This document shows positions 2,840 through 5,485 of a stretch of DNA of 64,000 nucleotides, in pieces; the first letter of the stretch is position 1; each line of letters opens with the position of its first letter. Source of the DNA: Enterobacteria phage ATK47; the sequence record NC_055708.1, one strand, 5' to 3'. The translations under genes and the position numbers were made by a program. The notes under the pieces were generated by a model. That model was not told the origin of the DNA and ran no database searches. It saw nothing but the letters and a program-made list of their open reading frames with translations.

Positions 2840-3355
2840 ATGAATATTTGTTTAGGCAGTACAATTCCTAAGGGTTATGTAATTGATGTCACTACCTATG
2901 AAAATGACGGGGACAACTATAAAACCAAAACATTGTTTGAAGTGGAAGAGCATGAGCTCCAACAGTTTAAATATCTCTTGAAGAAATTTAAGAGTCGTCA
3001 TTCCAGCACTAAAGCTGAACGTTACTGTGGTAATACACCATTCAGTGACTGCTCGCTTATTATCTACGAATATCTGGTTGAAGGGCTGTTCTCAGACCAA
3101 CTCCGACCAGAATTTATTAAAAAGGTCTTTGGCATCGAAGTAGACCTTGGTGATAAATCTGAAGAAGACGAAGCCCGCGTATTCGACCTGTTCTTTGTGA
3201 AAGGCGATGAGATATCTCAAGGACTTATTGATATTCTTGGCTATGCTTCTGAATACTATGATTACGATTTCTTGCGTGTAGTTGAACGTGTCGAATTTGC
3301 TTATATTGAAGAAGAAATTGTTTTGCCAACTGTTAAAATGATTGATTTGCTTTAA
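2840..3355 (+). CDS. hypothetical protein
   Basis: 171 aa ORF, SD GGTGAG upstream. Confidence 0.5.
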   Translation: MNICLGSTIPKGYVIDVTTYENDGDNYKTKTLFEVEEHELQQFKYLLKKFKSRHSSTKAERYCGNTPFSDCSLIIYEYLVEGLFSDQLRPEFIKKVFGIEVDLGDKSEEDEARVFDLFFVKGDEISQGLIDILGYASEYYDYDFLRVVERVEFAYIEEEIVLPTVKMIDLL

Positions 3356-3434
3356 GAATTATGTGTTATTATTAATTCATACCCTCTATTACCAAAGGTG
3401 CTCTAAAGTGCCTTTCATAATAGAAAGTTATTAA

Positions 3435-3509
3435 GGCCCTGTAGCTCAATGGGAGAGCTGTCAGCTCATAACTGATAGGTAGCTGGATCGAAACCAGCCA
3501 GGGTCACCA
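3435..3509 (+). tRNA. tRNA with CAU anticodon (Met or lysidine-modified Ile), includes encoded CCA
   Basis: Hand-folded cloverleaf: acceptor ggccctg/cagggtc, D stem gctc/gagc, anticodon stem gtcag/ctgat, loop CTCATAA, T stem gctgg/ccagc. Confidence 0.75.
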
Positions 3510-3512
3510 ATT

Positions 3513-3589
<77 letters not shown>

Positions 3590-3607
3590 ACTTCAAGTGA
3601 GGAAAAT

Positions 3608-3952
3608 ATGAAAGGTAATATTTATCTGGTAGTTCATGATTTAACGTTTTATTTTAACGAACAGGATACAGTTATTTCCGACCGGTTGATTAATTCATTA
3701 TATCAACACGCTGATTACGTTTATTTCCAAAATGAATTTGGCCATTGGAAGTTTCTTAAAAACCGTTCCGGGTTAACTAGTTTTGAATACTTTGACCGTA
3801 AAGACCTTTTAAACGAAATCCCATTGCAACATCGGTTCCAGAAACGCGAATCACTATACTATTGTCGCCATATACCAAATGCTGAATGTGTTTATGAAGC
3901 GATTAATCTATGGCGTCGGCGTCGAGAGCAAATTGATGATATGCCAAAATAA
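3608..3952 (+). CDS. hypothetical protein
   Basis: ORF with SD GAGGAAAA before ATG at 3608; upstream part of tracked ORF overlaps the tRNA. Confidence 0.45.
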   Translation: MKGNIYLVVHDLTFYFNEQDTVISDRLINSLYQHADYVYFQNEFGHWKFLKNRSGLTSFEYFDRKDLLNEIPLQHRFQKRESLYYCRHIPNAECVYEAINLWRRRREQIDDMPK

Positions 3953-4263
3953 GAAGCCGGGTCGCTACCGGCAAGTCGTCGGACTGATGTTCCCTGAGTA
4001 AGGACTGGTCTTAATAAATCTTTATGATTTGTTAATATCCCCTTACATCACAGCAGAAACGGCGCACAAAATTATCGATTCGAGGAAATATCTTTGCCGT
4101 AATCCGAGTAGCGTTTTTGACGGAACGTTCGGATATGGTCGAGATATGGCCTTTTAAAAATATTGAGTAGCGTCAACTGCTTAATAACCAGGTTCAAATC
4201 CCGGCGTTTCGTACAAACACTTGCCTTAGCAGGTGGAACCCCGACAAGGTTGCCGCAAGGCTT

Positions 4264-4290
4264 AGCCCCTTCCGAAAGGTTGGGGCTTTT
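4264..4290 (+). terminator. rho-independent terminator hairpin (gcccc..GAAA..ggggc + T-run), copy 1 of 3
   Basis: GC stem, tetraloop, U-run. Confidence 0.55.
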
Positions 4291-4335
4291 GGCATAATAA
4301 TAAATAGATAAGTTAATTAACTTAGGAAAAGCAAC

Positions 4336-4800
4336 ATGAAATCATACGCTGAATTTTTGACTGAACAATCTAGTTCAGATGTAAAAGCCGCTGCGATTGC
4401 AGCAATTCAAGCAGGTAAATATTCTTACAAAGACGCCTCTGATGAAGAACGTTTCCGTTTTATTAGAGATTTTAAAGCCGAAGGTTTTACTAATGCTAAT
4501 ACTGTTAGCCGAGTTTTTAAAAGCCTAGCTGCATCAGGTGAATTGTTCCAGAAAGCTACAGGTAAAGCACCTGCGCCAAAAACAGACCCTAAAGCAGCTC
4601 AAGAAAAAAATATCGCCAAAGGAATTATTTCTAAGTATGAAGCAATTCTTAAAGAGCTTTTAGTAATCAAAACAGAAGGCCAGAAACTGGCACGAGCACA
4701 TAGCTTCAAAGATAATCCTCACGCTCATAGCCTTGAGTATGTTGAAGATATCCAAAAACTTATTAAAGACCGTATCTGGTCTGCTAAACAAATTAAATAA
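4336..4800 (+). CDS. internal-protein-like (MKSYAEFLTE N-terminus)
   Basis: CTS-like N-terminus; SD AGGAAAAG. Confidence 0.55.
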   Translation: MKSYAEFLTEQSSSDVKAAAIAAIQAGKYSYKDASDEERFRFIRDFKAEGFTNANTVSRVFKSLAASGELFQKATGKAPAPKTDPKAAQEKNIAKGIISKYEAILKELLVIKTEGQKLARAHSFKDNPHAHSLEYVEDIQKLIKDRIWSAKQIK

Positions 4801-4806
4801 TAGAAT

Positions 4807-4834
4807 GCCCCTTCCTTATGGTTGGGGCCTTTTG
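4807..4834 (+). terminator. rho-independent terminator, copy 2 of conserved hairpin
   Basis: gcccc ttcc ttat gg tt ggggc followed by CTTTT. Confidence 0.55.
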
Positions 4835-4866
4835 GTATCTAGGGCATAAAAATATTTCATAAAGAT

Positions 4867-4906
4867 GTTTACTTCTTCCCTAGATGTGTTACTATAGATT
4901 TATCAA
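4867..4906 (+). promoter_or_regulatory. early promoter (GTTTAC, TACTAT)
   Basis: consensus elements upstream of 4924 gene. Confidence 0.5.
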
Positions 4907-4923
4907 CCACAGAGGAAAATATT

Positions 4924-5427
4924 ATGAGTCTTTACACTGAACTGAATAAAAAATCTGAAGAATCTGCTGAAACTATTTTTAAAAACGTGCAAAAGCGTAT
5001 TTTGGAAAAGATGTACGATGCAGCATCTAAAGGTGAAAAATCTTGCCGGTTTCCGATGAGGTGTTCTTCTGATTTATGCGCAAATACTATTGAATGGCTG
5101 GAAAGTGAAGGTCTTACGGTAGAGAAAAACCCGGCGACTTCTATTGACAGTGAATCATATATTAGTATTTCTTGGGATAAATCAAGGGTAGAAGAGAAAG
5201 ATGGTGATTGGGTTGTAGATGTTAAAACTTCTGATGGTGGACGTTCTGTTGAAGTTTCAGCTGTAGTTAAAGGTACCCACGGACAAAGGACTTGGGGTTG
5301 GGGTGGTGAAGAAAAAGAAATTGTTCTTAGTGTGATTGCAAGGTCTACTAGCAATAAAATTGCCCAGAGCATCATCTATGCTGCATGTATCGAAGCTGGA
5401 AAAATTTGCAAAATTAAAAATAAATGA
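4924..5427 (+). CDS. hypothetical protein
   Basis: 167 aa ORF with SD AGAGGAAAA; the antisense ORF 4932..5375 is treated as its shadow. Confidence 0.5.
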   Translation: MSLYTELNKKSEESAETIFKNVQKRILEKMYDAASKGEKSCRFPMRCSSDLCANTIEWLESEGLTVEKNPATSIDSESYISISWDKSRVEEKDGDWVVDVKTSDGGRSVEVSAVVKGTHGQRTWGWGGEEKEIVLSVIARSTSNKIAQSIIYAACIEAGKICKIKNK

Positions 5428-5485
5428 TGTACAAACACCATGGACGGTGTTACTATAGACCTATCAAATCAAGAGGAGAAACAAA

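Follow-up and report, generated by a model that had tools for sequence, protein, structure and literature searches.

The rnaD-rnaC locus of Enterobacteria phage ATK47: two small stable RNAs of the T4 type, one of them tRNA-shaped, as separate modules of phage tRNA arrays

Introduction

RNA C and RNA D, two small stable RNAs encoded beside the transfer RNA (tRNA) genes of bacteriophage T4, have been known since the 1970s. Work in the laboratories of Abelson, McClain and Apirion reportedly described them as species 1 (~140 nucleotides, nt) and species 2 (~120 nt), which arise from a dimeric precursor through processing by RNase P and RNase E. Here we analyze a locus at positions 3953-4335, + strand, of a 64,000-nt stretch (hereafter the window) of the genome of Enterobacteria phage ATK47 (NC_055708.1), in which an initial annotation, made from the letters alone, had seen a candidate small stable RNA locus. 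The locus is already known: it is the classical T4 rnaD/rnaC pair, annotated as such in a GenBank record of identical sequence.

In T4 infection, RNAC and RNAD are stable transcripts belonging to the late RNAs, and RNAC has been followed by Northern blot (PMC9697503). Their function is given as unknown in the literature up to 2025, which leaves two abundant T4 RNAs without an assigned function for about 50 years (PMC3014915, PMC9697503, PMC12685909), a problem on which structural models may help. When a T4-like phage was evolved on a semi-permissive host, the same rnaD single-nucleotide polymorphism (SNP) was found in all lines (PMC12685909), which hints at a host-specific role. The comparative handles gained here are covariation-backed structures for both RNAs, a proposed kissing-loop contact and a tRNA-like half in rnaC.

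Results and Discussion

Orthology with T4 rnaD and rnaC

Over the 1.6 kb compared (window positions 3300-4900), the ATK47 sequence is 100% identical to that of Enterobacteria phage ATK48 (Mosigvirus), whose GenBank record labels the bases equivalent to window 4075-4213 as 'rnaC, small stable RNA; species 1 RNA'. The 383-base stretch matches 800 phage records, with at least 80% query coverage in 678 of them, and is ~93% identical to T4. The RB3 record labels the homologous bases rnaD (species II RNA) and then rnaC; that of T4 strain 147 labels rnaC there. The guess that this region might be an equivalent of the T4 small stable RNAs was thus correct. The locus is real; that it comprises two separate RNAs and a conserved trailer, and that rnaC is tRNA-shaped, had been missed in the initial annotation. 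The parts of the locus are:

~3949-4069, + strand: rnaD (T4 species 2 RNA) orthologue, ~121 nt; coordinates transferred from the RB3 annotation (L002 1497-1617)
4070-4075, + strand: 6-nt spacer AAUUAU from the end of rnaD to the start of the rnaC acceptor stem, placed by alignments
4076-4215, + strand: rnaC (T4 species 1 RNA) orthologue, ~140 nt; window 4075-4213 by the GenBank annotation of ATK48, ~4075-4215 by transfer from RB3
4117-4122 with 4171-4176, + strand: proposed kissing-loop contact within rnaC, from covariation among 27 distinct sequences
4218-4261, + strand: 3' trailer, conserved, forming small hairpins at 4218-4235, 4237-4251 and 4252-4261 (the last with a GCAA loop)
4265-4290, + strand: terminator-like hairpin GCCCCUUCC-GAAA-GGUUGGGGC followed by UUUU, from folding; the homologous site is an annotated terminator in phage G4507

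The window copy of rnaC agrees with that of T4 at 135 of 140 aligned positions, is of equal length and likewise comes after rnaD, at the far end of the tRNA cluster and on the tRNA strand. Of its five substitutions, one puts an A.C mismatch into the T stem and another makes the T loop UUCAAAU where T4 has UUCGAAU. Identity between the rnaD orthologues is 101 of 114 aligned positions; the invariant 5' and 3' cores of T4 and RB3 (AAGUCGUCGG, CCCUG and ACGGCGC) are present in the window, just upstream of rnaC as in T4, and it is the tip of the P3 hairpin that has diverged. Covariance models built from homologues recovered both RNAs: the rnaC model (R1) matches window 4073-4218 at 164.6 bits, with T4 itself at 171.6 bits, and the rnaD model (R2) matches 3945-4072 at 146.5 bits. 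A scan of the stretch with the Rfam models, at E up to 10, found no family and one chance match to isrK on the minus strand (E = 6.3).

RNA folding, as advised in the initial annotation, gave −39.3 kcal/mol for rnaD (3951-4070; z = −3.8) and −46.6 kcal/mol for rnaC (4076-4216; z = −4.5), each more stable than all of its 200 shuffled sequences. Other features read from the letters held as well. No open reading frame (ORF) of 60 or more amino acids (aa) overlaps 3953-4335, the longest having 40-44 aa, and the G+C content (0.439 for 3953-4335 and 0.468 for 3953-4292) exceeds that of the whole window (0.372) and of the 1-kb flanks (0.379 and 0.373).

The 3' trailer (fold z = −2.3) is identical in RB3, differs by one base in T4 and is retained in phage IME08 without rnaC (match at query 264-377); most likely it forms part of the primary transcript's 3' end. 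The hairpin that follows had been called a strong terminator. A G+C-rich stem closed by a GAAA loop and followed by UUUU is indeed present, although it is somewhat weaker than that wording implies: T4 has a perfect 9-base-pair (bp) stem here and the window a slightly degraded version of it, with two U.U mismatches and only four U, which put it below the threshold of a simple terminator scan. The functional unit ends at ~4290, and 4291-4335 is the A/T-rich leader of the next gene (4336-4800, same strand). Taken jointly, the identity of the locus as orthologues of T4 rnaD and rnaC, the structures described below and the proposed biogenesis are in our judgment highly probable.

Structure of rnaC

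Homologues of rnaC were drawn from GenBank phages, IMG/VR and metagenomes, and the R1 model was used to align 29 copies, 27 of them distinct, from Tequatro-, Mosig-, Dhaka-, Karam-, Teguna-, Gelderland-, Kanagawa- and Marfavirus. In the resulting structure of 52 pairs, 92.6% of the cells over the 27 sequences hold standard pairs, and two-sided changes occur at 31 of the 52 pairs. None of 500 shuffles equaled this covariation, sliding the pairing partners by 1-3 columns reduced the paired fraction to 37-45%, and an independent MAFFT alignment gave the same picture. G.U pairs are found at many positions, which assigns the RNA to the + strand only. The molecule is a four-way junction of an acceptor-like stem, a D-like stem carrying a long hairpin, an A-rich linker, a 10-bp arm and a T arm:

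4076-4082 with 4205-4211, + strand: acceptor-like stem of 7 bp, CGAUUCG/CGUUUCG, including two U.U
4083-4085 with 4150-4152, + strand: D-like stem of 3 bp, AGG/CCU, bearing the long irregular hairpin
4117-4122, + strand: hexaloop UUGACG at the tip of the long hairpin
4161-4186, + strand: 10-bp arm with hexaloop CGUCAA at 4171-4176
4188-4204, + strand: T arm with loop UUCAAAU, of the GGUUCGAAUCC type
U4212, then ACA at 4213-4215, + strand: 3' end, following the acceptor 3' strand

Within the acceptor-like stem, pair 3:70 covaries (A-U in 14 and G-C in 13 of the 27 sequences), and in Tegunavirus, where pairs 4:69 and 5:68 are U-A and C-G, the whole stem is Watson-Crick or G.U. The T stem covaries at two pairs, and its G53-C61 pair is invariant. 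The triplet that follows the U at the 3' end is ACA in the window, UCA in Tegunavirus and CCA in Marfavirus.

The two hexaloops, UUGACG and CGUCAA, are exact complements. Their variants are UUGAUG/CAUCAA in Tegunavirus and UUGGCG/CGCCAA in Marfavirus, with two-sided changes at two of the six positions, and all six loop-loop pairs are standard in 27 of 27 distinct sequences. The R1 model held no pairs between the hexaloops, so the alignment had no bias toward this complementarity. The pattern indicates that the hexaloops would form an intramolecular kissing contact of 6 bp.

Likeness of rnaC to tRNA

The architecture of rnaC is tRNA-shaped, but rnaC is no tRNA. It shares with tRNA (RF00005) an acceptor stem of 7 bp, a T stem of 5 bp with a UUCRAAU loop (UUCRANY type), a discriminator followed by NCA or CCA, and a slot in tRNA arrays. 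When R1 was applied to genuine tRNAs it aligned with them end to end at 12-27 bits. In PG7 and Melville rnaC lies between tRNA-Trp and tRNA-Gly, spaced in PG7 by 6 and 3 nt as a tRNA gene would be. The spacer that separates the 3' CCA end of the tRNA from rnaC in PG7 is again AAUUAU; related phages have AAUAAU or AACAAU.

The differences from tRNA are equally marked. At ~140 nt rnaC is much longer, with a ~65-nt hairpin in the D region and a tandem U.U in the acceptor stem, and the two-base linker from acceptor to D stem (U8 and position 9) is missing. In place of an anticodon stem of 5 bp with a 7-nt loop there is the 10-bp arm with a 6-nt loop. Within 3953-4335 the Rfam tRNA model matched nothing at E values of up to 10, and ARAGORN called no tRNA there, the only tRNAs that it found being the two at 3435-3589. 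Neither ARAGORN nor Rfam reported a transfer-messenger RNA (tmRNA) in the stretch, and the sole Rfam hit to YrlA (16 bits, E = 4.8) covers genuine tRNA sequence at 3476-3540, outside it. A blastn search of E. coli genomes (E up to 1) found no match, so the stretch is no visible copy of a host RNA.

Molecules other than tRNAs that carry tRNA-like domains include tmRNA, YrlA, the 3' tRNA-like structures of plant viruses, mascRNA and the tRNA-like RNAs of gammaherpesvirus 68. In these an acceptor/T-arm half that tRNA-processing enzymes see is joined to a part that does not decode, and this principle would be common to them and rnaC. In detail rnaC departs from them: it has neither the tag reading frame of tmRNA nor the Ro-binding stem of YrlA, and to our knowledge a pair of arms locked by a kissing loop is a feature of none of these molecules.

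Structure of rnaD

Covariation in rnaD was assessed for three helices in an alignment of 18 sequences (A5). The elements of the RNA are:

3956-3972, + strand: P1, a 5' hairpin, from folding
3973-3982, + strand: invariant AAGUCGUCGG, whose CGUCG (3977-3981) pairs with CGGCG (4059-4063)
3986-3991 with 4052-4057, + strand: P2b, GAUGUU/AGCAGA, beginning with tandem G.A/A.G
3992-3996, + strand: invariant CCCUG, from sequence comparison
3998-4002 with 4042-4046, + strand: base of P3, a variable hairpin, GUAAG/CUUAC, from covariation

P1 is the hairpin GCCGG GTCGCTA CCGGC already quoted in the initial annotation. It is retained with other sequence in Karamvirus (UCAGAA GACG UUCUGA) and in phage W70. 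The closing helix CGUCG/CGGCG is constant in the 18 sequences of A5 and reads CGUCC/GGGCG in phage PEi20, a swap of G-C for C-G. P2b covaries: Karamvirus has UUUAAU/AUUAAA, Jiaodavirus AGAAUU/AUUUCU and the Marfavirus type CUAAAU/AUUUAG, and among T4-type copies its position 45:116 switches from U-A to A-U. At the base of P3 four of the five pairs show covariation. AAGUCGUCGG and CCCUG are near-invariant across genera though largely unpaired, as would be expected of motifs recognized by their sequence, the simplest partner being a protein. A standard kink-turn was considered for the tandem G.A of P2b and rejected, as the strand geometry is wrong (two extra A stand between the GA and the closing stem); the region is provisionally treated as an internal loop of unassigned type.

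Separate mobility of the two RNAs

Comparison across phages shows that rnaC and rnaD are independent modules occupying tRNA-like slots of phage tRNA arrays, separately mobile over many T4-like genera. Within Dhakavirus, IME08 (L009) keeps rnaD and the trailer, terminator included, and is missing rnaC, whereas MN04 (L032) has it, which shows that rnaC can be lost independently. In PG7 (Karamvirus) an rnaD-like element stands apart from rnaC, between tRNA-Asn and tRNA-Asp, and likewise in Jiaodavirus. Weaker rnaD-like copies were found in PEi20 and in a Marfavirus-type contig. Beyond the T4-like phages, W70, a member of the unrelated subfamily Vequintavirinae, bears an rnaD-like element directly after tRNA-Met (L006 1492-1600; 105 bits with R2), and phage A73 of the same subfamily also has one, which implies horizontal transfer of the RNA module.

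A pattern scan of metagenomes gave 18 hits; seven loci were chance matches, and the Marfavirus-type copy (L049) was recovered. In bacterial genomes a scan with the rnaD core pattern produced at least 120 hits, and among the 80 loci listed, nearly all from G+C-rich genomes, R2 found no real homologue (best score 18.5 bits, E = 0.075).

Two further observations were made on the compared records. Karamvirus and Jiaodavirus carry a non-coding stretch of ~130 nt between the rnaD-like element and tRNA-Asp (L029 785-919, L030 785-906, L004 510-645), with hairpins such as CCGAAAG UUUA CUUUCGG. It is near-identical in the three copies from Karamvirus and could represent a further small RNA. Many GenBank phage records also mislabel rnaC or rnaD, either as a tRNA-Lys or tRNA-Met of 94-95 nt or as short coding sequences (CDSs) for hypothetical proteins with ribosome-binding sites (L005 1664-1757, L004 1552-1646, L057, L058 and L059). 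The 94-95-nt calls start ~44 nt inside rnaC and apparently need an alternative acceptor helix; this helix was evaluated and rejected, having no two-sided change and a score below every shuffle.

Upstream genes and the position of rnaD

The genes upstream of the two RNAs are:

3435-3509, + strand: tRNA-Met(CAU), upstream operon member, by ARAGORN and the Rfam tRNA model (59 and 71 bits for the two tRNAs)
3513-3589, + strand: tRNA-Arg(UCU), upstream operon member, by the same two methods
3608-3952, + strand: ORF of 114 aa, phrog_3355, unassigned function, between tRNA-Arg and rnaD

In T4, RB3, Karamvirus, Jiaodavirus and W70, rnaD directly follows a tRNA. In the window it does not: the stop codon of the 114-aa ORF abuts the start of rnaD, while in T4 and RB3 this ORF is absent from the corresponding site and rnaD begins 1-2 bases past tRNA-Arg. 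Phage G4507 (Tequatrovirus) has the same phrog_3355 insertion between tRNA-Arg and rnaD. Since G4507 bears rnaD in this same arrangement, adjacency to a tRNA is a variable context and no property of the RNA itself.

The 114-aa ORF resembles a mobile or optional gene of the tRNA region, as segB does in T4. The whole 64-kb window has two tRNA genes, against 8 in T4 and 10 in RB3, and a homologue of its tRNA-Met(CAU) is labeled tRNA-Ile in another record, so that it may be a lysidine-modified tRNA-Ile. Ahead of tRNA-Met, a MotA-box-like TTTGCTTTA at 3346 is followed ~12 bp further on by a TATTAT-like −10 element; this region (3346-3375) may hold a middle promoter of the T4 type that serves the tRNA-rnaD-rnaC operon. 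No late-promoter consensus was found between 2500 and 5600.

Proposed biogenesis and function, and alternative explanations

We propose that tRNA-Met, tRNA-Arg, the 114-aa ORF, rnaD and rnaC would be transcribed together from a start upstream of tRNA-Met, possibly near 3346, to a stop at the terminator at 4265-4290. RNase P would then cut at C4076, the 5' end of the rnaC acceptor stem, and by the same cut set the 3' end of rnaD. Host enzymes of tRNA 3' maturation could then trim the 3' end of rnaC and perhaps restore it to CCA; U-CCA is encoded in the Marfavirus copies, which suggests a possibly CCA-like mature end.

As to function, rnaC might be a trans-acting tRNA mimic, its acceptor/T-arm half binding a tRNA-recognizing protein while the molecule never enters translation. 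The partner could be a phage enzyme or a host factor for defense or processing. In this proposal rnaD would be a distinct protein-binding RNA with the invariant AAGUCGUCGG/CCCUG/ACGGCG core at its center. We offer this pair of roles tentatively, as one possibility suggested by the comparative data. More doubtful is its more specific form, in which rnaC would represent an undescribed class of phage tRNA mimic (a top half with an NCA/CCA end on kissing-clamped arms) acting as decoy or cofactor for a host defense or processing protein, and rnaD an independently mobile protein-binding RNA that influences host range.

Several points weigh against these proposals. Acceptor pairs 4:69 and 5:68 are U.U in 25 of the 27 rnaC sequences, unlike in tRNA, and the window copy has in addition the A.C mismatch in its T stem (4190/4202, CCAGG...CCCGG), the sole non-standard cell there among the 27 sequences, which may weaken recognition by tRNA enzymes. 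The covariation that suggests the kissing loop comes from two independent lineages, that is, two compensatory events. For the biogenesis, the 5' end of rnaD in the window cannot arise as inferred for T4, by processing of a tRNA 3' end, because an ORF precedes it. Expression of the two RNAs in ATK47 would be expected from their T4 counterparts, the transcript data all coming from relatives. Protein binding by rnaC, and with it a decoy role, is a conjecture. Finally, laboratory strains reportedly still support the growth of T4 lacking the tRNA region, so any function of rnaC and rnaD would be dispensable there.

The main rival explanation is that both RNAs are stable by-products with a role in cis only, as structured spacers, as sites for RNase P and RNase E cleavage or as protection of the 3' end. 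Such a role would suit their constant location inside or at the end of tRNA arrays, the retention of trailer and terminator in IME08 where rnaC is missing, and the fact that no function had been reported up to 2025 (PMC3014915, PMC9697503, PMC12685909). It explains poorly, however, why unpaired and loop sequences (AAGUCGUCGG, CCCUG and the GG of the GGCC motif) are invariant across genera, which a spacer does not need, and why the kissing hexaloops vary only through complementary substitutions. Nor does it readily account for the persistence of rnaC and rnaD as separate modules at different positions of the array, for the move of rnaD into an unrelated phage subfamily or for the identical, adaptive rnaD SNP in all lines evolved on the semi-permissive host (PMC12685909). 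We regard a role in cis only as rather unlikely, though it deserves to be taken seriously.

The tRNA mimic proposed above must also be set against readings in which the stretch does something quite different. That part of rnaC is a genuine decoding tRNA is what the annotations of tRNA-Lys(ttt) in G4507 (L005 1664-1757) and tRNA-Met in PG7 (L004 1552-1646), both of 94-95 nt, would say, and the canonical T arm agrees with them; but ARAGORN and the Rfam tRNA model (E up to 10) are silent on the window stretch, the would-be anticodon loop is one of the two complementary hexaloops, and it is the acceptor stem of full-length rnaC that covaries and that is Watson-Crick or G.U throughout in Tegunavirus. 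We give this reading almost no credence. Nor do we give more to the encoding of small proteins, despite the ORFs of 40-44 aa and the CDSs annotated in Marfa, EI, Clarke and several Escherichia phages, since substitutions keep base pairs and not reading frames, small indels fall in loops, the ORFs are not conserved between lineages, and T4 makes discrete non-coding RNAs from this region (PMC9697503). A cis-regulatory leader, riboswitch or attenuator, for the gene at 4336-4800 might be expected of a structured region upstream of a gene on the same strand. The terminator hairpin stands between the two, however, the downstream neighbor varies (e.8 in T4 and RB3, a tRNA in PG7) and no cis-regulatory family of Rfam was matched, which together make a leader very improbable.

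Repeated elements downstream of the locus

Two repeats were noticed in the genes that follow. The terminator hairpin recurs at 4806-4836 (GCCCCUUCC...GGUUGGGGCC with UUUU), after the next gene, in a copy ~84% identical to the one at 4265-4290. The motif GTGTTACTATAGA occurs twice, at 4886-4900 and 5447-5461, each time followed by TATCAA and a Shine-Dalgarno sequence, ahead of two successive ORFs that start at 4924 and 5486; these ORFs probably share it as a promoter or leader element.

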